This document shows, piece after piece, positions 1,519-40,427 of a DNA stretch of 64,000 nt; position 1 is the stretch's first letter; each line of letters begins with the position of its first letter. Position numbers and translations under genes: made by a program. The stretch comes from Escherichia phage AV116: the sequence record OR352946.1. One strand, 5' to 3'. The notes below the pieces were generated by a model. That model saw only the letters and a program-made list of their open reading frames with translations. It made no database searches and was not told the origin of the DNA.

Positions 1519-2205
1519 TTAGAAGTCGTGAGTAGAATCGGCTTCCATCGCAATAACATAACTTACTTGAGAGCTTTCAAACTTGGCTGCAACTTTATCA
1601 CCAGCTCCCCACAACATTACTTTATAGTTACCTGGCTGGATTTTCATATTAGCCATATTGATTACGAAGTTAAAGTTGTTAGAACCATCATAATCGGTAA
1701 GAGTCAAAGAATACTTAGGACGAGTTAGTCCTGAATCTTCAACTTTATTATAGCCATTGATAACAATTTTACCATCTTTATTTGTAATAGCAATTGTATC
1801 AATCTGAAGACCACGTGAAACTCGAAGCAATTGTTGAAGGTCTTCAGCTTTAATTTCAGTAATCACAGAAGCTACTGGGAATTGAATTGGCTTATTAGGA
1901 AAAACAATTGTGCTCTTGTCAGCGGCAGGCCAATAAACTGTGGAACGTGTATCTGCAATTTTAATATTGCCATCAGTGTGCATTGAAATTTCAGCATCAT
2001 CAGACACTAGACTCAAAATGCTTAAGAAGCTATTCAAATCATAAAGTGCTACGTCAAAATCAATTTCATCAGAGATATTTGCTTCCGCATAAGTGGTGCC
2101 ATTAACTGCACGAGTCATAATAAATTTACCTTGACTCAGCAGAATGCCAGAGTTAATAGAAGCGAAGTTTTTCAGAATATTTACGGTTTCACGGCTAAGT
2201 TTCAT
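1519..2205 (-). CDS. 45: sliding clamp gp45
   Basis: 228 aa, same length as T4 gp45; synteny 45-44-62. Confidence 0.9.
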   Translation of the reverse strand: MKLSRETVNILKNFASINSGILLSQGKFIMTRAVNGTTYAEANISDEIDFDVALYDLNSFLSILSLVSDDAEISMHTDGNIKIADTRSTVYWPAADKSTIVFPNKPIQFPVASVITEIKAEDLQQLLRVSRGLQIDTIAITNKDGKIVINGYNKVEDSGLTRPKYSLTLTDYDGSNNFNFVINMANMKIQPGNYKVMLWGAGDKVAAKFESSQVSYVIAMEADSTHDF

Positions 2206-3101
2206 TTAGGTTTCCTATTAGCATAATAATTTGTCCAAGTCCGGATAGCACCTTGGTATGATTCATCATTAAAACCATGCTGAATTGCATGTTTTCTAAA
2301 TGTAATATAACTTGGTTTTCCTAAAGCAATCCACAATTCCTTTAATTTTTGTTCATGAAATATCCATGTACCTCTAGCTTTAGATTTTCTGAATTTATCC
2401 TTAAATTCTTTGGTTGCATTTCTTTTCGAAGCTGCGATAGAGGCCTTTGCTCTATTTTCAGGTTTAGACCAATACAATGTTTTAGATATTTTTATTTTAT
2501 CTTTAACATTAGGAGAATTCATTATATCTTTAAATTTTAAAGCAAAATCTCTATCGTTAAACATTTTTTTAGAACGAATAGAAACTTTCTCTCTTCGTTC
2601 TTTGGTCCAATATGTTTTTTGAAATTCTCTAATTGCGTTTAAATGATTCTCCGACAATTTGCAATTTTTTCTAACACCGACGTAATCTTCGTTTATTTCG
2701 TTTTTAGAAAGTTTTACTATTTTGCCTGTTTTTAAATTTTTATACGGTGCATATCCTTTAGCTGATATTCTAGACTTCTCGTTAGCATAAGCCTTATTAA
2801 AATATTTTTCATTTGAAACGGCTTTAACATTGAGTTGGAATAGTCTTTCTATTCTTCTAGGGTCTAATGTGGTTTCGCCTAAAATTTTTACAGAATATTC
2901 GCCTTGGTCTATTAATCTGTTATATAAAGGAGAATACGAGGAATTAACACTACCGGTATATATTTTACCGGTAGAATCTTCAATAATATCCTTTCCATTA
3001 AAATGACACGAAACTTTAGAACCTATATAATAACACGGGTATTCATTTTTAATCTCACGATTATAAAAGGTTATAAGATATATTAAATTCATAATTATCA
3101 A
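2202..3101 (-). CDS. GIY-YIG-like homing endonuclease with NUMOD3-like DNA-binding repeats (Seg-like), paralog 1
   Basis: N-terminal LIYLITFYNR...YYIGSK (degenerate GIY..YIG); lysine-rich C-terminal half with repeated K-x-K-I-S-type motifs; paralogous to 6954..7757 and 14083..14904; inserted between 45 and rpbA. Confidence 0.55.
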   Translation of the reverse strand: MIIMNLIYLITFYNREIKNEYPCYYIGSKVSCHFNGKDIIEDSTGKIYTGSVNSSYSPLYNRLIDQGEYSVKILGETTLDPRRIERLFQLNVKAVSNEKYFNKAYANEKSRISAKGYAPYKNLKTGKIVKLSKNEINEDYVGVRKNCKLSENHLNAIREFQKTYWTKERREKVSIRSKKMFNDRDFALKFKDIMNSPNVKDKIKISKTLYWSKPENRAKASIAASKRNATKEFKDKFRKSKARGTWIFHEQKLKELWIALGKPSYITFRKHAIQHGFNDESYQGAIRTWTNYYANRKPK

Positions 3102-3514
3102 GCAACAACCATCTGCTTTTTAATAGCTTCAGGCAGTGATTCAATATATTCTGGAATTTTAGAAGCAACAATTTCGCCAGCTGCAATTAGTTGTTCGTCG
3201 GCATCAACACAGTAAAAATCTTCAAGGCGTTCAGAACCGTCTTTATCAAGAACGATTTTAGCACCTGCTTCGATAGAATCTTTATAGTGCTTACGCATCA
3301 AATGAATCCACATATCAGACACATCGTTATCAATAAAACCATAAATCATAAAACGAGTTTCTTGTGGCAAAGATTGGAGTTTTTTAGCACTTGCGTCATC
3401 ACAATGCAGGACCCATGCTTTACGAACACGATTATGGTTATGTGGGTTAGCGTCAGTACGGATAGAAGTAACTTTCAGATCAGCAGCAGTGAAACCTTTA
3501 GCAGTAGTAAACAT
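3098..3514 (-). CDS. rpbA: RNA polymerase-binding protein RpbA homolog (by position)
   Basis: 138 aa ORF directly downstream of gene 45 as in T4; sequence identity not verifiable from memory. Confidence 0.5.
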   Translation of the reverse strand: MFTTAKGFTAADLKVTSIRTDANPHNHNRVRKAWVLHCDDASAKKLQSLPQETRFMIYGFIDNDVSDMWIHLMRKHYKDSIEAGAKIVLDKDGSERLEDFYCVDADEQLIAAGEIVASKIPEYIESLPEAIKKQMVVA

Positions 3515-3526
3515 ATTATTTCTCTC

Positions 3527-3715
3527 TTATTCGTAGAAGTCGGTAACTGTCCATGCGGAATTGCGATTAGACATTATTTTATTATACTCATCTTTAAAAG
3601 CAGATTTGAGCATTTGTTCAGTAACAATATGTTCTTCACCTGAAAACGTATTGGTCAAAACATATTTTTTAATTTCAGGGACAACGAGAAGATGTTGTCC
3701 AGTTGAATACTCCAT
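3527..3715 (-). CDS. 45.2: hypothetical protein, 45.2-like
   Basis: 62 aa from internal ATG at 3715 (MEYSTGQ...); position between 46 and rpbA. Confidence 0.5.
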   Translation of the reverse strand: MEYSTGQHLLVVPEIKKYVLTNTFSGEEHIVTEQMLKSAFKDEYNKIMSNRNSAWTVTDFYE

Positions 3716-3730
3716 GTTGTTCTCCATTTA

Positions 3731-3761
3731 ACACGATGTGGTCATTATAACCACATCGTGT
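3731..3761 (-). promoter_or_regulatory. perfect 12-bp stem hairpin between gene 46 and 45.2
   Basis: ACACGATGTGGT-cattata-ACCACATCGTGT inverted repeat in the intergenic spacer. Confidence 0.5.
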
Positions 3762-3769
3762 TAAAGCGT

Positions 3770-5458
3770 TTATGAAACAGTCATTACCGTAAATCGTCCA
3801 ACTTTGCTCATTTGAAGATGTTGTCCATAAGCTTGTGGGTCATGGTCTCTGTGACTAATTATAAACACGTTTGCATCGGTTAGAGAGTTAAGAATTGTTG
3901 AAATAGCTTTAATACCTTCAGAATCAGTCGCGGAATCCATGACTTCGTCCATAATTAATGTATTGATTCTAACACCAGAGACCTTTTCAGCAATATCTCG
4001 CCATGTAAACAACAACGCGATATCGATACGTGCTTTTTCACCTTGACTAAATGAAGCATAACTGAACTCTTCACGACCACGTGATTTTATAGATTCATTG
4101 AATTCTTCGTCAATAGAAAACACGTAATCAGCTTCCATGATTTTAAGATAATGGTTAATCTGCTTGTTGAACAGAGGCACATATTTTTTAATGATAGCAC
4201 CTTTAATACCAGAATCTTTTAACATATCTGTGATAATACCACGATGGTATTTTTCAAGAACGATATCCGATTTTGTTTTAATGATTTTATCAAGTTCTTT
4301 TTGAAGCAAAGCTATCTCATCGGCATGGTCGATAAATTCCGCTGAGGCTTGTTCTATTGCAGCTTTAACTTTCTTAGCTTTATCAATAGTGGCAATCATT
4401 GCTTGTTTCTTGGTACGAATATCAGATGCAAGGTCCTGTTTAGTCTTAACATTAGCTCTATATTCGTCCACTAGGACACTCAGATTATCTCTGTGGCAGG
4501 TAAGTTGCTCGAATGAGTGATTACATTCATGAAGCTTATCGGTAATCTTAGAGACAATAGGATCACCCTGGTGCAACTGTGATGCGCAAGTAGGACATGT
4601 ACCGCCATCATGATACATCTTAATAACTTTGTTGTATGAGTCAATTTTAGATTTAATCAAGAATGCTTCTTGTCCTATCTTGTTGAATGCCTCAGTAGGG
4701 TCTTCATCAAGAACGATATTAAGTAGTCGCTCATTAGCTTCTTCGATTTCTGCTTTTAATGAACGAGCTTCTTTAGCTAGGTCGTCATACATATTCTGTA
4801 GACGCGCTACATTATCACCAGATAATTTCTTTTGACGTTCGATATTCTCGTTATAAATCTTAATTTGTTGGATAACACCATCTTTCTTGGCATCGAGAAC
4901 TTGTCCCTGGGAATTAAGTTCTCGAACTTGAGACTTATTGATTTTATCCATTTCAGCGAGTGTGCCGACTTCTAAAAGGTCTTCGACAAGTTTTCTACGA
5001 GCAGGGGTGCTAAGAGCCATGAAAGGGGTATACCCTGCCGTCCCAAGCACAACGATCTGTTTAAAAGACGCGTATGACATTCCGATGCTACGTTCAAATT
5101 CTTCTTGGAAGTCACGACTGCTGGCAGATTCATCAAGACGAACACCGTCAACGGAGATTTCGAAAATATTGGGCTTTTGGCCACGTTTAATGAAGTATTT
5201 TTTATCATCGAATTCCATCCAAAGCTCAACTAAGAGCTCTTTCTTGTTCGTGCTATTAATGATTTGTCCTTTCTTAACATCACGAAATGGTTTACCGAAA
5301 AGTCCGAAAGTAATGGCTTCTAACATCGTAGATTTACCACCGCCATTTTTACCAGTGATTAATGTCTTTTGAACTTTATCTAATTGGATATCAATAGGAT
5401 TCCCACCTACCGACATGATGTTTTGATAACGAACACGATTTAATTTAAATGATTTCAT
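3770..5458 (-). CDS. 46: recombination endonuclease subunit gp46 (SbcC/Rad50-like ATPase)
   Basis: 562 aa; Walker A GKNGGGKST near N-terminus, CxxC zinc hook (CPTCAS), C-terminal D-loop; length matches T4 gp46. Confidence 0.9.
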   Translation of the reverse strand: MKSFKLNRVRYQNIMSVGGNPIDIQLDKVQKTLITGKNGGGKSTMLEAITFGLFGKPFRDVKKGQIINSTNKKELLVELWMEFDDKKYFIKRGQKPNIFEISVDGVRLDESASSRDFQEEFERSIGMSYASFKQIVVLGTAGYTPFMALSTPARRKLVEDLLEVGTLAEMDKINKSQVRELNSQGQVLDAKKDGVIQQIKIYNENIERQKKLSGDNVARLQNMYDDLAKEARSLKAEIEEANERLLNIVLDEDPTEAFNKIGQEAFLIKSKIDSYNKVIKMYHDGGTCPTCASQLHQGDPIVSKITDKLHECNHSFEQLTCHRDNLSVLVDEYRANVKTKQDLASDIRTKKQAMIATIDKAKKVKAAIEQASAEFIDHADEIALLQKELDKIIKTKSDIVLEKYHRGIITDMLKDSGIKGAIIKKYVPLFNKQINHYLKIMEADYVFSIDEEFNESIKSRGREEFSYASFSQGEKARIDIALLFTWRDIAEKVSGVRINTLIMDEVMDSATDSEGIKAISTILNSLTDANVFIISHRDHDPQAYGQHLQMSKVGRFTVMTVS

Positions 5459-5703
5459 ATGTATTCTCTTCGAATGAAGTCCTCTACATATTTTAACATG
5501 TCATCCCTATCAGCAAAATATTCATCTAGTTCTGCATACATAACAACACCTGGTGCATACTCACAGGTAACATACATTGTTCCAAAGAAACGAGGAGTTG
5601 ATTCCTCGTAATTCTCAGTCCATTCAACGATACCAATATAACCGTCACCAATACTAAATTCATGACGATGGATTTCATAATCAGTCTTCGTCATTATACG
5701 CAT
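5455..5703 (-). CDS. hypothetical protein (46.1-like)
   Basis: ATGA overlap with gp46 start; ATG at 5703 (track start at 5709 is TTG). Confidence 0.45.
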   Translation of the reverse strand: MRIMTKTDYEIHRHEFSIGDGYIGIVEWTENYEESTPRFFGTMYVTCEYAPGVVMYAELDEYFADRDDMLKYVEDFIRREYI

Positions 5704-5938
5704 CCTCAATACACGCTTCAGCCATTTTAAGAATAGAGCCAGGAGTATCGTTGTCCATTATATTAAAGCTAAATTCAATAGCCCAGTCGGTGCAGACATG
5801 AACTGCTTTAACTTCATTGCCTTCAACGCGTAATGGCTCAATCCAATACTTGATAGTGTTCTCGAATCCATCGTCATCTTTAACGTCCATTTCAACTTCA
5901 AGCCTGAGTCCAGCATTGTTAAATTCATCTAAAGTCAT
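5681..5938 (-). CDS. hypothetical acidic protein (46.2-like)
   Basis: 85 aa; ATGA overlap with gp47 stop. Confidence 0.45.
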   Translation of the reverse strand: MTLDEFNNAGLRLEVEMDVKDDDGFENTIKYWIEPLRVEGNEVKAVHVCTDWAIEFSFNIMDNDTPGSILKMAEACIEDAYNDED

Positions 5939-6954
5939 TGTGTTGCCTCAATATAAAGTTCGTTGGAATATTTGACCAGCGCTTCTCTGTCTTCATCTGA
6001 GATATCTGGAATCGCGTCAATATATTCTTTAATGATATCTTGAAGTGATTTAATCTCGATTTCCTGGTCGTCATCAGATTCAACACTGTTATCAACTTTA
6101 GAAACCATACGAAGAGAGTGAACTACTTTTTCAAGTTCAGATTCAAACTTAGTCAACTCTGAATCAATTTCTGATACTATAACACGTACGGCTAGATTAG
6201 TATAATCAGAATAATTGATTTTGCCTTTAAATGGATAAGTGATTCGTCGATGCCATGTTGTTTCATTAGGAATAAATTCCATACGTTCAACATCAGTGTC
6301 AAATACCCAGAATCCGCGCGGGTCGTTCTCATCACCTGCAGTAAGGGTCCATGGTGTCCCAATATATTTGACGTTAGCAGCTTCAGAGATTGTGTGGAAG
6401 TGGCCGGACCAGACTTGTTTATAGGTCTTTAAGAAATCAGGTTCAAGCCCATGAGACTTCATTCCTTTATAGAAATAGAAGCCATTTAATTCCCAGTGCC
6501 CAACACAATACGCTGCAGAAGAAGTCTTGATGTGCTCTAAGATTTCACCTGTATTTTCTTCACACATCCATGGAATCAAATCAATCAAGCACCCATCAAA
6601 ATCTACTGTAGTTGGCTTATCATAAATTATTACGTTTTTACGATGGCTCAATAATTCTTGAACAGTGTTAGGATATAAGGTTGTTTTATAAAAGAGATCA
6701 TGATTCCCAAGTATTGTATGGACTGTTATACCAGCGGCTTCCACCAAATCAAACATTTCACGCGTGAATTCCATACAACGTTGTGTGGTGTGGGCTCTGA
6801 CATCAAATGTATCACCATATTGAATCCATGTTGTTATTCCATTTGCGACGGAATAGTCGATCATTTGTCTGAAACCGTCACGTTGTATAGCTTGAATCCA
6901 ATCGTCGTCTTTTTTGACGCCTAGATGCAAATCGCCTATATTAAGTATTTTCAT
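5935..6954 (-). CDS. 47: recombination endonuclease subunit gp47 (Mre11/SbcD-like phosphoesterase)
   Basis: 339 aa from ATG at 6954; phosphoesterase motifs GDLHLG, GNHD, GHxH. Confidence 0.9.
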   Translation of the reverse strand: MKILNIGDLHLGVKKDDDWIQAIQRDGFRQMIDYSVANGITTWIQYGDTFDVRAHTTQRCMEFTREMFDLVEAAGITVHTILGNHDLFYKTTLYPNTVQELLSHRKNVIIYDKPTTVDFDGCLIDLIPWMCEENTGEILEHIKTSSAAYCVGHWELNGFYFYKGMKSHGLEPDFLKTYKQVWSGHFHTISEAANVKYIGTPWTLTAGDENDPRGFWVFDTDVERMEFIPNETTWHRRITYPFKGKINYSDYTNLAVRVIVSEIDSELTKFESELEKVVHSLRMVSKVDNSVESDDDQEIEIKSLQDIIKEYIDAIPDISDEDREALVKYSNELYIEATQ

Positions 6955-7757
6955 CACATACCTTTAAATTTGGAGTAAATTATATTGTGGTACGATATAT
7001 CAGGAAACCCTTTATCGACCGCAATTTTTCTAAACTTATTAGGACTTATTTTACCACACTCCATCCATAATGCAAACAACTCGTCAAAATGCTCATATGC
7101 TGGACCTCGACGAGCTTTTGACACAGCAGCACTTATGCGAGCCTTTTTCTCAGAATCAAGGTTTTTAAGAGAATTACTTATTTTATTTTTTTGCTCTTCT
7201 GAATTGAAGGTGCCTTTTTCCCAGCCTAAAGGTTGGCTTCCTTCATGGAACATTTTTCTTGAAGTTCCATTGGTATACCATATTTTACCTTTATTGTGCC
7301 CTGATGCTTTATATTTTGGTGAGCGTCCTTTTATAAATCCTTCAGGTATAGTAGGAGCAAATGTTTGTTCAAGGGTTTCTGGGTTATACGAATGTATGTT
7401 ATTTTTGGCGTTATGAGACCCATATAATGGGTGATTTTTACCAGAAACATCACGCCCAAAGAAACCAGTTGGTGATGCCAAAGACATATTCATATACAAA
7501 GGATTTTTATGAGCTTGAACTCTAATTTGATAGTCCTTTTCCACCTTTAAAGCTTCTTCTCGTGTTGGATGTTCGCTCAAAATACAAGAATCAAACAACG
7601 TAGGATTTTCTAAAAGTTCTTTGTTATAAATTTTACGATAGGCTTTAGATAGAATAGTACCATGATACCCGTTTAAATGTTTTTCTAAGCTAGTCGAACC
7701 TATGTAAAAAGGTGGTAGCTTATCTCCAGAATAAATTGTCAAATAGACTATAAACAT
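6954..7757 (-). CDS. GIY-YIG homing endonuclease-like protein with NUMOD3-like repeats, paralog 2
   Basis: Start at ATG 7757 with AAGGAG SD; FIVYLTIY...FYIGST, conserved Glu/Asn region (SCILSEHPTREEALKVEKDY...HKNPLYMN) resembling I-TevI catalytic domain; GKNHPLYGSHNAKN and K-x-K-I-S repeats. Confidence 0.6.
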   Translation of the reverse strand: MFIVYLTIYSGDKLPPFYIGSTSLEKHLNGYHGTILSKAYRKIYNKELLENPTLFDSCILSEHPTREEALKVEKDYQIRVQAHKNPLYMNMSLASPTGFFGRDVSGKNHPLYGSHNAKNNIHSYNPETLEQTFAPTIPEGFIKGRSPKYKASGHNKGKIWYTNGTSRKMFHEGSQPLGWEKGTFNSEEQKNKISNSLKNLDSEKKARISAAVSKARRGPAYEHFDELFALWMECGKISPNKFRKIAVDKGFPDISYHNIIYSKFKGM

Positions 7758-7781
7758 ATATTTCTCCTTTGATTTAAGGAG

Positions 7782-7811
7782 ATTATAACACGCCTTTAAT
7801 GAAGCGTAAAC
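7782..7811 (-). promoter_or_regulatory. T4-type early promoter-like element (GTTTAC-N18-TATAAT) upstream of GIY-YIG gene
   Basis: minus-strand reading TTGTTTACGCTTCATTAAAGGCGTGTTATAAT. Confidence 0.45.
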
Positions 7812-7835
7812 AAAAAAAGGAAGCACTAGGCTTCC
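7811..7835 (-). terminator. rho-independent terminator-like hairpin
   Basis: GGAAGC-loop-GCTTCC stem followed by U-run on minus-strand RNA. Confidence 0.5.
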
Positions 7836-7902
7836 TTTTGATATCGCCTAAGGCTTATAGGTCCTTAGAAATCTGGATGTTCATCTTCAACAAAGCTAGT
7901 AT

Positions 7903-8118
7903 TCATCGCTGCCACCATTTTTTAAGTTGATGTGAATCTACCCATACCTTCGCTACAGGCTCAATATTAAAAATACCATCGGACGTACGTCCAATCATTT
8001 TGTATTCGGTTTCAGATTGCTTGATACAAATATCACCATAAGAGCGAAGTCTAAAAGCGGCTCCTACTAGAAGCCGTTTAAACTTTGTTTGAACTAGCGC
8101 CATTAATGATGTCCTCAA
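7903..8118 (-). CDS. hypothetical protein
   Basis: 71 aa ORF, co-oriented; start uncertain. Confidence 0.35.
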   Translation of the reverse strand: MRTSLMALVQTKFKRLLVGAAFRLRSYGDICIKQSETEYKMIGRTSDGIFNIEPVAKVWVDSHQLKKWWQR

Positions 8119-8401
8119 TAGCCTGACGAGTAGTAACCCACTGGATTTTAATTAACTTGTCATTATATGGTTGTCTTAGAATATCCCGAGATTTCTTAAT
8201 AGCATATTCGTAAGCTTCGAAGTTGTTTTGAATTGCTGCTTCTTGAGCATGAGCATAAAGACGGTTTAGTTCAAAACGATTCTTTTTAAGAATCTTTTCG
8301 GATTTTTTACGTGCTTCAGCTTCATTTTTCTTTTGGATTTCTTGTAGCATTTTAGCTACTGCATCTTCTGCTTCTTTATTTTCAATAATCTCGGTAGTCA
8401 T
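8078..8401 (-). CDS. hypothetical protein
   Basis: 107 aa co-oriented ORF. Confidence 0.45.
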   Translation of the reverse strand: MTTEIIENKEAEDAVAKMLQEIQKKNEAEARKKSEKILKKNRFELNRLYAHAQEAAIQNNFEAYEYAIKKSRDILRQPYNDKLIKIQWVTTRQAIEDIINGASSNKV

Positions 8402-8402
8402 A

Positions 8403-8612
8403 TTATCTCATTAAATTAAAATAAAAACGTCCGTCCTCTTCAATACAGAACTCATACTCAACCGGAGTCCCATTTATCGAAAATAACACGTCATGTGGGT
8501 TCAAAGGGTCGATGTCAAAATTAATTTTAAATTCACGACCCAACAGTTTTACCAAATAAGGGATTGCTTCGTCAAAAGGTTCTTCTAAGTAGTTAGAGAT
8601 GTCAATTGTCAT
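8403..8612 (-). CDS. hypothetical protein
   Basis: ORF downstream of gene 55; ATG at 8612 or 8618 overlapping the gp55 stop. Confidence 0.4.
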
Positions 8613-9177
8613 CCTCATATAAAAAATCCAAACTAGGCGAATCGCTAACAACTTCCTTCTTTTCAGCCCCAGGAGCTTTATAAGCGGATTCTTCATAATG
8701 CGTCATTTTATCGTAGATGTCTTGAATAAACGTTTCATCTACCAACGCTACCATATCATCGTCATGACTGTCGTAGACATTATGAACGAAGTAACTATAT
8801 TTCTTTGCAACTTCCTTACGTTCTTTTTTGATACGTTGGACAAAAGCATTAAAACAAGCTCGAGTTATGTATGCATGTGGGTTATTGTACTTAGTTTCGT
8901 CGAAATTATGAAGTCCCTTAATAGAGGCTTCAATCCCATCTGCAATCATCTCCTGCTTCCAAGACTGGGTATATCCTGAAAAGTTGAAACGTTTGGACAG
9001 GCCTTCGGCGATAAGCATAATTGCTAAACCGATGGTATCATTCTGACGAATAATTTTGTTTGGGTCTTTATTATTTAAGAGCTCCTTTTTCCACTCGATT
9101 ATAGCGGCGAGAAGCTCTTTATTATTCACATAGTTATTTTTAGGTTTTTGTTCAGTCATAAGTACCTCTTGGCTCAA
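8602..9177 (-). CDS. 55: late-transcription sigma factor gp55
   Basis: 191 aa; near-identical over long stretches to remembered T4 gp55 ([52 protein letters not shown]). Confidence 0.95.
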
Positions 9178-9314
9178 TTCATAGGTCTATTATATCATAA
9201 TATTTAGAGACCTATCTTAAAGCACGAGATACTATAAAAGATACATAACTTTTATAAAGTTGTCGACTTAAAATTCACCAATCTTTTCTTCAGTTATACT
9301 GATTCGAGTTAATT

Positions 9315-12278: not shown

Positions 12279-14092
12279 TGGTGTTTAACCCTATGCATGA
12301 TTTCTTTATTTTTACCGAGATTAAATCCGCGTTCGTTCGGATTTCCCAAATAGCCGCATGTTCTTCTTATGGTGTTCATCTTTTTAGGATCAGTTTCTCC
12401 GCAAACTGAACAAACAAATCCATTTTCGGTAGGAGTCATTTCATGAGTACTTCCACATGTAAAACATTTATCTACTGGCATATTAACACCAAAATAATCT
12501 AAATGTTGTGCAGCATAATCCCAGACAGCCTCAAGTCCTTTTAAGTTATTTTTCATATCAGGAAGTTCAACATAAGAAATGTGACCACCTGTCGCAATGA
12601 AATGATACGGCGCTTCACGAGAAATCTTTTCAAACGGAGTAGTATTTTCTTCTACTGAAACGTGGAAACTGTTAGTGTACCAGCCTTTATCGGTAACATC
12701 TTTTACACTTCCATATTTTTCTGTATCAAGTTTACAGAAGCGATAACAAAGGTTTTCAGCAGGAGTAGAATACAAACTAAAAGCAAAACCAGTTCTTTCA
12801 GTCCACTGTTTAAGATGAGCATTCATTTTAGTTAAAATTTCTTGTCCAATATCACGACCGACAAGAATATTCAATTCATGAATACCGATGTATCCTAAAG
12901 ACACTGAACTTCTACCGTTTTTAAATAGCTCAATTATATCGTCATCAGGTTTAAGACGAACCCCGAATGCACCTTCTTGGTAAAGAATAGGAGCAACAGT
13001 CGCTTTAACTCCTTTTAAGGAACTAATTCTACACATCAAAGCTTCAAAACACAGGTCCATTCGTTCATTGAATAATTCAACAAATTTCTGTTCATTGAAC
13101 TGTGTTCCAATATAAGAATCTAATGCGATACGAGGAAGATTCAGTGTTACAACGCCGAGATTATTACGACCGTCAAGAATTTCATTTCCAGTTGAATCTT
13201 TCCATACGCTCAAGAAACTACGGCAACCCATCGGAGAAACTGGAACTGAAGAACCGGTAATAGCTTTATTATTCTTAACTGAAATAATGTCAGGATACAT
13301 TCTTTTGCTTGCACATTCTAACGCAAGTTGTTTAATATCATAGTTTGGATCATCTTTATAAAGATTAACACCTTCTTCAAAAAACATAACAAGCTTAGGG
13401 AAAATAGGAGTTATTCCATCACGTCCAAGGCCTTTAATGCGGTTTTTAAGAATTGCCTTCTGAATCATTCGTTCAGTCCAGTCAGTTCCCGTACCAAATG
13501 TAATTGTCACAAAAGGCGTTTGTCCGTTTGAACTAAAGAGAGTGTTTACTTCATATTCATAAGCTTGGAATGCATCGTATACGTCTTTTTCTGTTTTAGA
13601 TTGAGCATAATTCAGAATGTCTGGTATTTGCCATTTTTCTGCATCTTCAACATGTTTAGCGTATGTGCGTTTAACATAAGGAGAAAGAACTTTATCGACA
13701 TTCGCAAATGTAGTTCCGCCATACTGGTGTGAAGCAACTTGTGCAGTAATTTGTGCCATAATTGCAGTAGCAACGCCAATAGATTTAGGCGTTTCAATTT
13801 GAGCATTGCCTAATTTAAATCCATTCTCAAGCATTCCTTTTAAATCTACTAAACAGCAATTAGTAAAAGGCAATGATATACTATAATCTAAATCGTGAAA
13901 ATGAATTAATCCGACATTATGAGCATTTACAATATGGCTCGGAAGAATACTACAAGCGATATGTTTAGAAACAATACCGGCCATTAAATCTCTTTTTGTT
14001 GGAAAGACACGAGAATCTTTGTTGGCATTTTCGGTATTTAATTCTTTATCTTTATTTGAAATAAAATTTAAAACATCTTTCTCTAAAGACAT
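12275..14092 (-). CDS. nrdD: anaerobic ribonucleoside-triphosphate reductase NrdD
   Basis: 605 aa; C-terminal glycyl-radical motif RTCGYLG and zinc ribbon CFTCG...CSVCG; uninterrupted ORF (no intron apparent). Confidence 0.95.
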   Translation of the reverse strand: MSLEKDVLNFISNKDKELNTENANKDSRVFPTKRDLMAGIVSKHIACSILPSHIVNAHNVGLIHFHDLDYSISLPFTNCCLVDLKGMLENGFKLGNAQIETPKSIGVATAIMAQITAQVASHQYGGTTFANVDKVLSPYVKRTYAKHVEDAEKWQIPDILNYAQSKTEKDVYDAFQAYEYEVNTLFSSNGQTPFVTITFGTGTDWTERMIQKAILKNRIKGLGRDGITPIFPKLVMFFEEGVNLYKDDPNYDIKQLALECASKRMYPDIISVKNNKAITGSSVPVSPMGCRSFLSVWKDSTGNEILDGRNNLGVVTLNLPRIALDSYIGTQFNEQKFVELFNERMDLCFEALMCRISSLKGVKATVAPILYQEGAFGVRLKPDDDIIELFKNGRSSVSLGYIGIHELNILVGRDIGQEILTKMNAHLKQWTERTGFAFSLYSTPAENLCYRFCKLDTEKYGSVKDVTDKGWYTNSFHVSVEENTTPFEKISREAPYHFIATGGHISYVELPDMKNNLKGLEAVWDYAAQHLDYFGVNMPVDKCFTCGSTHEMTPTENGFVCSVCGETDPKKMNTIRRTCGYLGNPNERGFNLGKNKEIMHRVKHQ

Positions 14093-14904
14093 AATTCTAA
14101 TTTATCCTTTTGAAATTCTTCGTCTAAATATGGGTTCCAACCCATTTTAAACCTTTTGATGAAATTATCAATTCTAAATTTCGGTAAATTTAACTCCGCA
14201 AAAATAGATGATTTACTTTTAAAATCTGGACCTAAATAATCATATAAAATTTCTGCGTATTTTAACCATAATATATAAGTACCAGATTTAATTGCGTTCG
14301 GAGTTTTCCAAGGTTTTACACCATACATCGGATTTCCACTTCCTTTATGCCTGATAGAAGATGAAATTCCAATTTTAATTTTAGCTTCCTTTGTATGCGA
14401 AAATCCACGATGCGGATTTTCTTTCCAGTATTTTTTAGCAGCTTCTGATATTTTCTTTCTGGCTAAATTAGTATGATGCTTTCCATAAAATCCATGATTT
14501 TTGCCTTTATTACGATTTCTTTTAATCATGGTTATTGATTGCTTTTCTCTAGTTTCTTTAGAAGGAGAAATACCATATGTCGTAAATTTGCCATCAGCAT
14601 ATGCTAAATTAAAATACTCTTTATTCCATACATCTTTTTCTATATTCTTTTGAAATTCAGCTTCAATGCTAGTTATTTGTTCATCTCCGACTAATTGAAA
14701 ATATAATATTTCAACTTTCGGCGTTTCTTTCAATAAGGCTTTTTGAAATTCGGAAGATGACGAAGACGAATAATAAAATTTACCATTTTTATCAATAATA
14801 TTCGTTCCATCAAAAGTGCAATTGGTTTTACTTCCAATGTAATAATATGGTGGGGTTTTAGCATTAATTCTATTAATAAATGATAGTTTATATACTACAT
14901 TCAT
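14083..14904 (-). CDS. GIY-YIG-like homing endonuclease with NUMOD3-like repeat, paralog 3
   Basis: VVYKLSFINR...YYYIGSK; GKNHGFYGKHHTNLARKKISEA; free-standing between nrdD and 49. Confidence 0.55.
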   Translation of the reverse strand: MNVVYKLSFINRINAKTPPYYYIGSKTNCTFDGTNIIDKNGKFYYSSSSSSEFQKALLKETPKVEILYFQLVGDEQITSIEAEFQKNIEKDVWNKEYFNLAYADGKFTTYGISPSKETREKQSITMIKRNRNKGKNHGFYGKHHTNLARKKISEAAKKYWKENPHRGFSHTKEAKIKIGISSSIRHKGSGNPMYGVKPWKTPNAIKSGTYILWLKYAEILYDYLGPDFKSKSSIFAELNLPKFRIDNFIKRFKMGWNPYLDEEFQKDKLELCL

Positions 14905-20096: not shown

Positions 20097-21077
20097 TTAT
20101 TTCAGTAAAGTTACTTCGGAGATTTCTTCCCAACCATCTTTATCAGTTGAAATAAAATCTGCTACATAAAGAGCCGTACGTAATGATACATTGCGAAGAC
20201 GAGATACGTTAGCCTTCATCCAGGACAATGCTTTATACGTTTCTGCATCCGTCAGACCACGTTTCTGCATCATGTCAGTAGATAATATTACATCTTCAAC
20301 TCGAACCATAATCTCTTCATTAGAGTGTACTCCAAGGTCGAGATACACTGAACGAGATACTAAAGCTTGAAGGTGTGGAGCAAGTTTCGAACCGCGTTCT
20401 AACTCTTTATCGATATCAACGTTTGTAATGAAAACGATAGTACCTTCAAACTCAAATTCTTTATCAATACCCTTATCATCGAGATAAGATGACGCAGTGC
20501 TCCAACAAACTTTGCGTTTATCTCCGGTATCTAATGCTGCTTTAAGAAGATTCAAGATGTCCATATCTGAGAATACGTCAACGTCGTCGATTAAGAGAAC
20601 GCTGTCTGCATCACGGTTGAGCCAAAGTTGTTCGTAAAGGCCAATACCAGAGATTTTACCATTAATACTTTTGTATTTGATGAAACCATTATCATTAGCA
20701 TTATTAAGTGCTTTATCCAGAGAATACGTCTTACCAATACCTGCTGCACCTGAAATAATGAGTGAACGAATTTTGCCATCAATAATGCCATTCGTCATCA
20801 TGTTCATTACTTTAAAGCGTTTGTTGATACGAGTTTTCATATCTTCAGTGCTTTCAGCAACTGCAACTGGTGATGTCTCAACTCCTTCCATTACGATGTC
20901 TGATTTGAAGACCCATACTCCACGTTCAGAACCATCAATCATAACGAAAATTTTACCATCACCTAAGTGGGAACATTCAGGATTAAGCTTTGCCGGGAAC
21001 CAGGTCTTTGTGGCAACATAAGAACCAGAGATTTCGTTATTACGATAGATACCTTTTTTGATTTGAACGTTGAACAT
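20097..21077 (-). CDS. P-loop ATPase (AAA-like) with N-terminal extra domain
   Basis: Walker A GAAGIGKT, Walker B LLIDDVD; ATG at 21077 with GGAGAA SD. Confidence 0.6.
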   Translation of the reverse strand: MFNVQIKKGIYRNNEISGSYVATKTWFPAKLNPECSHLGDGKIFVMIDGSERGVWVFKSDIVMEGVETSPVAVAESTEDMKTRINKRFKVMNMMTNGIIDGKIRSLIISGAAGIGKTYSLDKALNNANDNGFIKYKSINGKISGIGLYEQLWLNRDADSVLLIDDVDVFSDMDILNLLKAALDTGDKRKVCWSTASSYLDDKGIDKEFEFEGTIVFITNVDIDKELERGSKLAPHLQALVSRSVYLDLGVHSNEEIMVRVEDVILSTDMMQKRGLTDAETYKALSWMKANVSRLRNVSLRTALYVADFISTDKDGWEEISEVTLLK

Positions 21078-21116
21078 TTTATTCTCCAAATTTACTCATT
21101 TCGTTTCGATAGGTCT

Positions 21117-21469: not shown

Positions 21470-22459
21470 TCATTTATAGTATGAATTGTGGTTTTCTAAG
21501 TAGACTTGCTCAAGAAAGTCATCCCAGAAACTCATATCTACTTTTTGTTGCATACCGTTCTTAGCGGCTTGTTCCGATGCTTGTTCAACTTGGTCAACGA
21601 TATCTTCTAGGAATTCTTGTACAGTTTTAAACGTATGTTTACCAAGCTTAACATCGAGAATAAATGGAGCATCCTGAAGTGGGTAAACCAGGTCGCCGGT
21701 TTTGTAAATTTCCAATAATTGAAGTCCACCACGACATGCATGACTCAATGCTTTCCAATCAATACCTTCATTGGCTTCAGCCTTACGAGCACGTTCACCA
21801 TAGTTCTCTTCCAGTTTAACCAGGATGGCATTGAACTCTTTGTTAGTTAACGTATCTTGGAATTTACGGTCCAACAGACTATAAAATGTTTGCTTACCTG
21901 TTTTCTCGTTTTCGGTTTCAACCCATGAAGCAAATTCACCTACAGGCAGAACATTCTTCATATGTGATAAACGAATTACTGCACCATTATCAAAGTATTG
22001 TCCCCATTCATTAGAACGTTTAAGGGCTTGACGAAGAACAGCCAGTCGAGAACCCTTGACACCGTATTTAGAAGCTTGCTTACGGACATACCCTAAATAA
22101 GATTTCATGTTAGTAGTATAGAAACGAGACCTGTTATCTTGAATATACTTCCATACATCAGGCAAATCAGATTTAACTACTAGACTTTGTGGAGTGTGAA
22201 GCATATCTAATGCGACGGTTTCACCATCCGCAGCTAGTTTAAAGAAATATTTGAGACTGTACAACTCATGGTCCACGTCGTCTTTTGTGTTCTTAGAAGA
22301 TGTGTTATTCGTGTTCTTGCTCATGTGTTCTTTAACGTTACCGGTCAAAATATCACGAGCATGAGGGACATAAATTTCTTTAAAATCGATGTCAGATTCA
22401 GGAGTAGACGTTCCATAAAGGTGGCTGCCAAAGTAGCCTTTCATAATTGTTTTCATCAT
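21470..22459 (-). CDS. Pol-beta superfamily nucleotidyltransferase-like protein
   Basis: N-terminal YFGSHLYGTSTPESDIDF fits the GS-x9-DxD nucleotidyltransferase signature; 329 aa. Confidence 0.55.
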   Translation of the reverse strand: MMKTIMKGYFGSHLYGTSTPESDIDFKEIYVPHARDILTGNVKEHMSKNTNNTSSKNTKDDVDHELYSLKYFFKLAADGETVALDMLHTPQSLVVKSDLPDVWKYIQDNRSRFYTTNMKSYLGYVRKQASKYGVKGSRLAVLRQALKRSNEWGQYFDNGAVIRLSHMKNVLPVGEFASWVETENEKTGKQTFYSLLDRKFQDTLTNKEFNAILVKLEENYGERARKAEANEGIDWKALSHACRGGLQLLEIYKTGDLVYPLQDAPFILDVKLGKHTFKTVQEFLEDIVDQVEQASEQAAKNGMQQKVDMSFWDDFLEQVYLENHNSYYK

Positions 22460-39761: not shown

Positions 39762-40427
39762 TTAAAATTTCATTTTTCGACCTTTAAACCATCCTTCTGG
39801 AATTGGGTCAGTTTTCTTAATACGTTTAGAAACTTTTTCATCTAATGAATGAATCCACATCATACCAAATTGGGAATTCTTTTCGCCCTGTTGATGTTTA
39901 TTTCTGGCGTGAGATTCTTTCATTTTATTAATAGTTTCAAGAGTATGGGTCTTACCCAAGAAAGATTTAGTATTTAAAAATTTCTCTCTATACTTAGGAT
40001 TATCCCAAAGCTGTTTAAACCTTTCTGAACCCATTTTACGATATTTTTCTTTAAGGTCTGGGTCGTTCTCAAATCTGGTTTTAAAAGCAGCAGCCCCTTT
40101 TAAGGAAGCTTCTTTCTTTTTATCCAAATATTCTTTAGTGTTTAAATGGTCCCAACCACCTTCACCACCTAATTTCAAATTATAAACATCAGGGCGCTTT
40201 AAAAACTCTTCAGTCACAATATTCTTTTCTGACTCAAACATAGAGGTTTTATCGTCAAAGAACTCTAATATTTCTTTAGAGAAATTTTCTATACCATACT
40301 TGTCTTGGGCTCTTTTTAATAATTTACCAGAACCCATATATCCATCATCTAAATTTTCGGTAGAATGGGCGCCTATATAGATTTTATTATTAATTTTATT
40401 TGTTATTTTATAAGTGTAATGGAACAT
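39762..40427 (-). CDS. segB: GIY-YIG homing endonuclease SegB-like
   Basis: canonical N-terminal GIY-YIG (HYTYKITNKINNKIYIGAH...GYMGSG); embedded between two tRNA genes as T4 segB. Confidence 0.75.
   Translation of the reverse strand: MFHYTYKITNKINNKIYIGAHSTENLDDGYMGSGKLLKRAQDKYGIENFSKEILEFFDDKTSMFESEKNIVTEEFLKRPDVYNLKLGGEGGWDHLNTKEYLDKKKEASLKGAAAFKTRFENDPDLKEKYRKMGSERFKQLWDNPKYREKFLNTKSFLGKTHTLETINKMKESHARNKHQQGEKNSQFGMMWIHSLDEKVSKRIKKTDPIPEGWFKGRKMKF

Follow-up and report, generated by a model that had tools for sequence, protein, structure and literature searches.

A putative Seg-like GIY-YIG homing endonuclease cassette at the 5' end of gene 47 in Escherichia phage AV116, an a-gt-free Mosigvirus

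Does the absence of the alpha-glucosyltransferase gene a-gt between genes 47 and 55 of Escherichia phage AV116 (OR352946.1), where a homing endonuclease-like gene is found, mean that a mobile element has displaced it? A first-pass annotation of the window, that is the whole stretch of 64,000 nucleotides analysed here, placed a-gt in this interval of T4 and described the AV116 interval as holding a 267-aa ORF and three small ORFs, with neither a-gt nor any ORF of glycosyltransferase size. These points proved accurate: the T4 record reads 47, 47.1, a-gt, mobB, a-gt.2-.5, 55, the ORF list and the annotation of phage AV109 agree on the content of the AV116 interval, with every gene on the minus strand (Table 1), and apart from the 267-aa ORF the longest ORF on either strand measures 143 aa and runs antisense within the former. 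The coordinate 8696, previously given as the edge of the interval, is not a gene start; it marks the mechanical end of an ORF that extends upstream of the true start of the ~71-aa reading frame.

Table 1. Features of the window from gene 47 to gene 55.
Feature	Position	Strand	Evidence
Gene 47, Mre11/SbcD-like recombination nuclease subunit	5935..6954	-	Pfam Metallophos 5.6e-7, AV109 annotation
Foreign 5' part of gene 47, ~codons 1-120	6595..6954	-	identity profile vs RB69, HX01, NRG-P0074
Predicted GIY-YIG homing endonuclease gene, free-standing, 267 aa	6954..7757	-	
RNA hairpin TCTCCTT-AAATCA-AAGGAGA, pairs the endonuclease Shine-Dalgarno	7763..7782	-	scan
Sigma-70 / T4-early-type promoter match, (G)TTTACG, 17 nt, TGtTATAAT (extended -10)	7782..7810	-	10/12 consensus + TG
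Intrinsic-terminator-like hairpin and T-run, ends the a-gt.3 unit	7815..7839	-	10-bp stem plus TTTTTTTG; fold z -3.4
a-gt.3 homologue (non-RB69 allele, named a-gt.3* here), 66 aa	7903..8103	-	phrog_1648 2.3e-29
a-gt.4 homologue (DUF2654), 107 aa	8078..8401	-	Pfam PF10849 1e-27
a-gt.5 homologue (DUF5491), ~71 aa	8403..8618	-	Pfam PF17595 4.3e-12
Gene 55, late sigma factor, interval boundary	8602..9159	-	AV109, RB69, T4 annotations

T4 and AV116 have in common the genes flanking this interval and the homologues of a-gt.3, a-gt.4 and a-gt.5, and each hosts a homing endonuclease gene in it; however, AV116 is devoid of 47.1, a-gt and a-gt.2, and the T4 endonuclease is the HNH-type MobB, located at a different spot from the GIY-YIG gene of AV116. 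The a-gt.3* protein is 85% identical to a-gt.3 of Dhakavirus IME08 and 51% to that of RB69, and its nucleotide sequence is 92.5% identical to that of Mosigvirus ESCO47; RB69-type homology picks up again at 8074. The a-gt.4 homologue is 58% identical to T4 a-gt.4 and 99% identical to RB69 at the nucleotide level. The a-gt.5 homologue, which T4 a-gt.5 matches in tblastn over 8618-8406, overlaps with its start the end of gene 55, itself 99-100% identical in nucleotides to NRG-P0074.

The window derives from an RB69-like Mosigvirus: it is 99.9% identical to phages AV109/114/118 and colinear with RB69, the type phage of the genus, at 97-100% identity outside mobile inserts. Its end does not connect to the beginning of AV109, and the window probably derives from a sister isolate. 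In their 47-55 intervals RB69 possesses a-gt.2 and no endonuclease gene, and AV116 the reverse. Four Mosigviruses free of the endonuclease (RB69, HX01, NRG-P0074 and ESCO47) likewise have no a-gt between genes 47 and 55, and its absence there appears, on the genomes compared, to be normal for the whole genus. The reading that we favour, with a probability of roughly 0.8, is that Mosigviruses are ordinarily a-gt-free and arabinosylate their cytosine, and that the extra part in AV116 is a homing cassette of ~1.2 kb (~6595-7810).

The earlier description of the 267-aa product as GIY-YIG/NUMOD3-like was right but weakly grounded, as its Pfam matches fall below threshold (E 0.005, 0.019). Searching PDB sequences with the single sequence or with a profile HMM returned no informative match, and the link to GIY-YIG nucleases came only from fold comparison and profile-profile comparison; with this evidence added to the sub-threshold Pfam matches, the assignment is solid. 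The predicted structure consists of a nuclease domain with the GIY-YIG alpha/beta catalytic fold (residues ~1-95, pLDDT 96-98), a linker with NUMOD3-like beta-hairpins, and a separate C-terminal helical DNA-binding module (~187-264; NUMOD3 / helix-turn-helix), and its matches in the fold comparison are GIY-YIG nucleases. Among 60 homologues, down to 25% identity, Y9, G11, Y18, G20, Y31, G33, E73 and N90 are invariant; the motifs Y5/Y9 (IVYLTIY) and Y18-I19-G20, along with E73 and N90, vary little or not at all in this set, and R66 is nearly invariant. E73 and N90 align with E75 and N90 of I-TevI (hhalign 98.3%), and none of the aligned residues could be matched to Arg27 of I-TevI, the catalytic centre thus appearing only partly canonical. 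The HNH label borne by phrog_10820 and several RefSeq records is an annotation error: Pfam yields no HNH family at E<=0.1, and the protein is predicted to fold as a GIY-YIG nuclease.

The closest parallels are the Seg proteins of T4 (SegA-G), which are homing endonucleases of the free-standing GIY-YIG type and are responsible for localized marker exclusion. Shared with them are the N-terminal GIY-YIG domain with a Seg-type 'Y-x-G/S-S/T' motif and with Glu and Asn at I-TevI-like positions, the modular C-terminal DNA-binding part, the seat between conserved genes, the presence/absence polymorphism and the co-converted flanks. Unlike them, the AV116 protein belongs to a family of its own, phrog_10820, which T4 itself lacks at this site; it has no BLAST-level similarity to SegA, SegF or I-TevII, its promoter looks early rather than late, and its nuclease role is a prediction from sequence and fold. 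Compared with I-TevI, the td intron endonuclease (PDB 1LN0/1MK0), the AV116 gene is not intron-encoded, and its product is 16-21% identical in sequence and has no visible zinc finger. The 267-aa product seems to be an ordinary selfish Seg-like GIY-YIG homing endonuclease, and the locus adds nothing that alters understanding of how such elements work; what the comparison does flag is a widespread family of predicted endonucleases mislabelled as HNH in databases.

One limit of the cassette is recorded in gene 47, which is chimeric, with a standard Mosigvirus 3' two-thirds and a foreign 5' third. Its first 360 nt share 57-73% nucleotide identity with endonuclease-free Mosigviruses, as opposed to 90-100% from nt 361 onwards, and at the protein level identity is 61% in the foreign part versus 99% in the rest, which puts the downstream junction at ~6590 +/- 30. 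The same type of N-terminal allele, at 76-88%, occurs in two other genomes that carry the endonuclease gene. We read the foreign segment as a putative co-conversion tract brought in with that gene, its footprint being visible here and the event itself not observed. The upstream junction falls at 7811/7810, right after the T-run of the terminator. ESCO47 has a near-identical terminator (two mismatches) before its gene 47 and diverges from the window directly past the T-run, and LF82-4 diverges from RB69 at the equivalent point. The locus offers a clean natural example of a homing endonuclease's footprint: both junctions are sharp, one lying at a terminator and the other in a conserved stretch of an essential gene. 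We also considered 6595-8073 as one imported block that would account for the loss of a-gt.2, and rejected it: ESCO47 possesses a-gt.3*, the terminator and no a-gt.2, all without the endonuclease, and the cassette was narrowed accordingly to the limits given above. Part of the mosaic, a-gt.3* in particular, is thus not endonuclease-driven, T4-like genomes being mosaic anyway. Further mosaic joints exist near the locus.

The endonuclease gene is inserted between conserved genes and is polymorphic among close relatives. The full segment is present in only 4 of 767 matching records; in 34 of the 40 best-listed ones the flanks alone are aligned (57-58% coverage), LF82-4 and ESCO47 being partial. 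The gene is absent from the four Mosigviruses named above and from the others listed, with the exception of LF82-4, which has a diverged homologue. Homologues with 55-65% identity directly precede gene 47 in Mosigvirus LF82-4, Tequatrovirus PaulHMueller, Dhakavirus IME08 and two metagenomic T4-like contigs. No near-identical donor of the imported tract was found in the phage collection or among metagenome proteins: for the endonuclease, the top homologue not from an AV phage shows 63% identity, and for the 5' part of gene 47 the nearest match, that of LF82-4, reaches 72-82% in nucleotides. The LF82-4 endonuclease allele (63% at the amino acid level) has the same breakpoints as the window, which would be compatible with a single ancestral acquisition in Mosigvirus; this was rejected, as the tracts are only 72-82% identical while the flanks are ~100% identical, which implies that the genus acquired the gene independently at least twice.

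One possibility, which we hold tentatively and consider doubtful for now, is that the gene represents a Seg lineage not yet characterised, whose site-specific homing would target the 5' end of gene 47 across four or more T4-like lineages, repeatedly overwriting the N-terminal 120 codons and capturing the translation start. Were this so, the lineages concerned would span glucosyl-hmC Tequatrovirus, arabinosylated Mosigvirus, Dhakavirus and others, and the enzyme would have to tolerate several kinds of modified DNA; the overwritten codons would include those for the catalytic motifs of gene 47's Mre11-like product, the same nuclease by which the enzyme's own breaks are resected, and the lineage would keep replacing the alleles of a core recombination gene.

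The distribution also bears on whether the ORF might be a decayed or domesticated relative of homing endonucleases, a non-cutting DNA-binder, for example a regulator of gene 47, that has been inherited vertically. The gene is rare and patchy in the genus and is represented there by two diverged alleles, each with foreign flanks, which points to recent mobility and not to vertical descent. Moreover, the ORF is full length, its tyrosines, Glu73 and Asn90 have remained invariant over the whole range of homologues, and its nuclease domain is modelled with high confidence, so that we regard decay as unlikely, even though the sub-threshold Pfam scores and the missing clear counterpart of Arg27 would fit it, tight coupling to the essential gene 47 could hold an inactive ORF in place, and I-TevI also acts as a repressor (PMC2988022).

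More improbable still is that the endonuclease gene was a passive passenger and that the mosaic block results from routine homologous exchange when T4-like phages co-infect a cell. Such exchange fits ESCO47, which has the a-gt.3* allele and has lost a-gt.2 with no endonuclease present, as well as other mosaic joints nearby. In the window and in LF82-4, however, which acquired it independently, foreign sequence sets in exactly past the terminator, always includes the endonuclease gene and stops in one and the same conserved block of gene 47, the geometry to be expected of break repair at a fixed site.

For the homing cassette, we infer the following course of events. The cassette comprises an early-type promoter, a hairpin at the ribosome site, the endonuclease gene and, from a foreign gene 47, the initial ~360 nt. 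During mixed infection the enzyme would cut alleles that lack its gene, close to where gene 47 begins. After resection of the break, the donor would serve as the template for repair, by which the endonuclease gene would be copied along with the sequence on either side of it. The exchange would resolve on one side where gene 47 first becomes highly conserved (block at nt ~361-420) and on the other just past the terminator that precedes this gene. The foreign 5' part of gene 47 probably also protects the carrier from its own enzyme. Co-conversion and marker exclusion have been described for Seg enzymes (PMC2988022, PMC2330249), and nucleases have been reported at recombination boundaries (PMC10448857).

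As for expression, the first-pass annotation credited the endonuclease gene with its own early promoter and terminator. The promoter match stands (7810-7782), as a consensus match, with promoter-like sites no commoner in the region (12) than in shuffles (9.4 +/- 3.4), whereas the terminator hairpin (7839-7815) lies upstream and ends the preceding unit. No terminator was found between the endonuclease gene and gene 47. The TGA stop of the former has one base in common with the ATG of the latter, and with gene 47 starting inside the endonuclease stop the two genes would be co-transcribed and probably translationally coupled. The outer stem of the hairpin upstream of the endonuclease gene also pairs the AUG, and the fold of 7745-7800 (-13.8 kcal/mol, z -3.9) was equalled in stability by none of 200 shuffles. 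The predicted transcription start falls within the loop of this hairpin, and RNA beginning at 7775 is unstructured (-1.1 kcal/mol). Expression is probably limited to transcripts from the gene's own promoter, because read-through RNA would hide the ribosome site in the hairpin. Hairpins that sequester the ribosome site have been documented for I-TevI/II/III, segB and mobE (PMC2988022); a T4 late promoter (TATAAATA), as in I-TevI, was sought at the hairpin and is absent.

Against this background, it is scarcely credible that the incoming endonuclease gene replaced an ancestral a-gt and thereby altered the DNA modification state, as the first-pass annotation had offered as one option: T4 does have a-gt at the same position together with another endonuclease gene, mobB, and the cassette did replace native sequence, but a-gt is equally missing from the site in the four endonuclease-free Mosigviruses, it coexists with an endonuclease homologue in PaulHMueller (order 47, endonuclease homologue, 47.1, a-gt), the sequence replaced amounted to the short leader plus gene 47's 5' third rather than a 1.2-kb gene, and the arabinosylation pathway is intact in AV109. 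A tempting inference is hereby corrected, as an absent a-gt need not mean a gene displaced by a mobile element. Nor can the loss of a-gt.2 be attributed to the endonuclease, because ESCO47 is without both.

The other option, that glucosylation is encoded elsewhere or differently, stands in its second half. A search for transferases, as had been recommended, was carried out by tblastn with T4 a-gt and b-gt as queries; neither the window nor positions 1-110,000 of AV109 gave a match (E<=1e-3), and ten further mid-size ORFs of the window have no glycosyltransferase Pfam match. For RB69, homologues of a-gt, b-gt and ba-gt are reported absent (PMC6024577). RB69 DNA carries arabinosylated cytosine, shown for this phage only, and the gene assignments there are gp3 and gp46:47 as arabinosyltransferases, gp48 as 5-hydroxy-dCMP synthase and gp50-55 in sugar-nucleotide supply (PMC6024577; PMC13326640). 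Judging from gene content, the modification state of AV116 is probably RB69-type cytosine arabinosylation, encoded elsewhere in the genome, a state that bears on restriction evasion and on the use of AV phages in phage therapy. The RB69 arabinosylation genes p003, p045-048 and p050-055, read in the near-identical AV109 (99.9% to the window over this locus), are conserved there at 96-100% protein identity and in RB69 order, at 75-104 kb, 3-31 kb upstream of the start of the window and outside it.

In the first-pass annotation, a-gt had been placed between genes 47 and 55 on the T4 map, and the corresponding interval of Escherichia phage AV116 was said to hold a 267-aa gene and three small ORFs, with no glycosyltransferase-sized ORF. 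The gene order of the T4 record (47, 47.1, a-gt, mobB, a-gt.2, a-gt.3, a-gt.4, a-gt.5, 55) and the ORF list, which contains no ORF longer than 143 aa besides the 267-aa ORF on either strand of the interval, show that both the map position and the observation were correct.

Features in and around the 47-55 interval of the window, followed by diverged homologues of the 267-aa ORF in other genomes
Feature	Position	Strand	Remarks
Gene 46	3770-5458	-	
46.1, 46.2	between gene 46 and gene 47	-	
Gene 47	5935-6954	-	
267-aa ORF	6954-7757	-	TGA stop shares one base with gene 47 ATG
Non-coding stretch	7758-7902		145 nt
Terminator-like hairpin with T-run	7839-7815	-	first control element 5' to 3'; fold z -3.4
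Promoter match	7810-7782	-	second element; GTTTACG, 17 nt, TGtTATAAT
Hairpin TCTCCTT/AAGGAGA	7782-7763	-	last element; pairs Shine-Dalgarno, outer stem reaches AUG
66-aa ORF	7903-8103	-	T4 a-gt.3 homologue
107-aa ORF	8078-8401	-	T4 a-gt.4 homologue (DUF2654)
~71-aa ORF	8403-8618	-	T4 a-gt.5 homologue (DUF5491)
Gene 55	8602-9159	-	
Homologue, Mosigvirus LF82-4	upstream of gene 47		63% identity
Homologue, Tequatrovirus PaulHMueller	upstream of gene 47		207 aa, 65% identity
Homologue, Dhakavirus IME08	about 3450-4100, between gene 47 and a-gt.2		unannotated; 61% identity over residues 2-202, single frame
Homologues, two metagenomic T4-like contigs	upstream of gene 47		62%, 55% identity

The 267-aa ORF obtained sub-threshold Pfam matches to GIY-YIG (E 0.005) and NUMOD3 (E 0.019) and no match in PDB sequence searches. 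It falls into phrog_10820 of PHROGs (E 2.5e-75), labelled 'HNH endonuclease', and has 123 homologues in the protein database, many of them with NUMOD3. Residues Y9, G11, P15, Y18, G20, Y31, G33, E47, F55, E73 and N90 are invariant across 60 aligned homologues, the profile of which matched a profile of T4 I-TevI, I-TevII, SegA, SegF, SegG and the window's other Seg-like ORFs (98.3% probability, E 2.6e-14); in this alignment FYIGS falls on the YIG motif, E73 pairs with I-TevI E75, and N90 with I-TevI N90. The AlphaFold model (mean pLDDT 88.8; 96-98 in the first 90 residues) has the I-TevI catalytic domain as its nearest solved structures in Foldseek. The profile match and the modelled fold bear out the initial GIY-YIG/NUMOD3 call and point to a modular GIY-YIG enzyme of the Seg kind, albeit one in which no equivalent of I-TevI Arg27 was identified; the 'HNH' label is wrong. 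The element is a putative new member of a well-known kind. The same label is widespread for the phrog_10820 family in RefSeq (LF82-4, QL01, G9062 and others), the fold and motifs of which are GIY-YIG.

Across 5900-9200 the window shares 99.9% identity with Escherichia phages AV109, AV114 and AV118, and 99.8% with AV115; these four belong to Mosigvirus, the genus of RB69. The RB69 interval reads 47, a-gt.2, a-gt.3, a-gt.4, a-gt.5, 55, without a-gt or an endonuclease gene; HX01 and NRG-P0074 share this layout, and in ESCO47 a-gt, a-gt.2 and the endonuclease are all missing. Homologues of a-gt, b-gt and ba-gt were not found in RB69 by Thomas et al., who report arabinose in place of glucose on its DNA (PMC6024577). 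Lee et al. (2026) described mono- and poly-arabinosylated 5-hydroxycytosine and assigned three roles: 5-hydroxy-dCMP synthase to gp48, arabinosyltransferase to gp3 and gp46:47, and sugar-nucleotide supply to gp50-55 (PMC13326640). This pathway is conserved: RB69 p003, p045-p048 and p050-p055 match AV109 in tblastn at 96-100% identity and in RB69 order, upstream of gene 43 and thus outside the window, which starts at gene 44. Neither the window nor AV109 1-110,000 gave a tblastn match to T4 a-gt or b-gt, and no glycosyltransferase Pfam match was found among ten further mid-size window ORFs. The layouts, the literature and the AV109 pathway genes together mark the absence of a-gt, already accounted for in the literature, as a genus-wide trait. 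Of the two explanations initially offered, glucosylation encoded elsewhere or differently holds in modified form, as DNA glycosylation is encoded elsewhere in the genome and with a different, presumably arabinose-based chemistry. Displacement of a-gt by a mobile endonuclease is refuted by this genus-wide absence and by PaulHMueller, where the order 47, endonuclease homologue, 47.1, a-gt, a-gt.2 onward demonstrates that both genes coexist where the genus has a-gt.

The distribution of the element is patchy: the whole segment occurs in just 4 of the 767 phage records that matched, and 34 of the 40 best-listed of these align at the flanks alone (57-58% coverage). Its diverged homologues display site-specific synteny across lineages, lying directly upstream of gene 47 and overlapping its start by 1-23 nt at their 3' ends; more remote relatives occupy other genome sites. 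The IME08 record extends gp47 N-terminally in place of the homologue, probably a mis-annotation.

Alignment to endonuclease-free Mosigviruses gives 97-100% identity across genes 44-46 and over the 3' two-thirds of gene 47, and 99.5% from 8072 on; 6955-8071 has no counterpart in these phages, and the first ~360 nt of gene 47 (6595-6954) reach only 57-73% identity. At the protein level, identity to RB69 is 61% for gp47 residues 1-120 and 99% for the remainder. The window, LF82-4 and metagenomic contig L016 have a common gp47 N-terminal allele (76-88% identity among these carriers, 56-64% to endonuclease-free phages). LF82-4 has the same breakpoints as the window, with 72-82% identity inside the tract and flanks of ~100%, which means that the genus gained the element on two or more occasions, from separate donors. 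The downstream breakpoint common to both falls on nt 361-420 of gene 47; this block, which encodes PTTVDFDGCLID, shows 88-95% conservation even across genera and would be the expected site for repair synthesis to resolve.

At the upstream junction, the window's a-gt.3 protein is 85% identical to IME08 and 51% to RB69, and endonuclease-free ESCO47 carries the same non-RB69 allele (92.5% nucleotide identity) with a near-identical terminator (two mismatches) and without a-gt.2. The window and ESCO47 diverge directly past the terminator T-run (7811/7810), the point equivalent to that at which LF82-4 diverges from RB69, which places the cassette proper (endonuclease gene plus foreign flanks) at about 6595-7810. 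It replaced a short leader of native sequence together with the 5' third of gene 47. The a-gt.3 segment and the a-gt.2 loss belong to a separate mosaic layer, not caused by the endonuclease. ESCO47 2556-2839 represents a third Mosigvirus layout (47, terminator, Dhakavirus-like a-gt.3, neither a-gt.2 nor endonuclease), and its a-gt.4 is only 73% identical to the window at the nucleotide level, against 99% for RB69.

The gene had also been credited with its own early promoter and terminator. The former stands only as a consensus match, a good fit to the T4 early promoter pattern, such matches not being enriched in the region; the latter does not, the terminator-like hairpin ending the upstream unit. 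When folded, read-through RNA from upstream reaches -13.8 kcal/mol (z -3.9); a transcript beginning near 7775, the predicted start, lacks structure. Sequestration of the ribosome site on read-through RNA is documented for I-TevI, I-TevII, I-TevIII, segB and mobE, with the open transcript supplied by a late promoter (PMC2988022); here, in contrast, the promoter is early-looking, and the late promoter TATAAATA is absent at the hairpin. No terminator occurs between the endonuclease gene and gene 47, and the two are probably co-transcribed and translationally coupled. By analogy with Seg enzymes (PMC2988022, PMC2330249, PMC10448857), the endonuclease would, during co-infection, cut genomes that lack it, close to where gene 47 has its 5' end; break repair would then copy the cassette and flanks out of the donor, and the foreign 5' portion of gene 47 would shield the carrier from its own enzyme. 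The locus represents a tidy natural case of probable homing-associated gene conversion inside an essential recombination gene.

Genes 44-55 span a hot spot of homing endonuclease insertion. Between gene 45 and rpbA, a 299-aa Seg-like ORF (2202-3101, minus strand; phrog_7504, E 3e-16) aligns with T4 SegG-type N-termini, and segment 2180-3094 is missing entirely in NRG-P0074. Conversely, NRG-P0074 is annotated with one homing endonuclease gene between 45.2 and 46 (5321-6037) and another between 46 and 46.1 (7738-8592), both absent at window 3714-3780 and 5459-5796, respectively; identity falls to 70% beside the 46/46.1 insertion site. Further along the minus strand, nrdD and gene 49 flank a 273-aa homing endonuclease gene (14083-14904; phrog_7504 1.5e-33, NUMOD3 6e-7), with 14034-14899 lacking a counterpart in NRG-P0074, and a 221-aa SegA-like ORF (39762-40427) shares 54% identity with residues 9-98 of T4 SegA. 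Two ~330-aa ORFs of the nrdC region (20097-21089 and 21470-22459, both minus) have other affinities, one with weak AAA/STAND-NTPase and HTH matches, the other matching RlaP, an RNA-repair-pathway polymerase-beta-like nucleotidyltransferase (7.7e-13).
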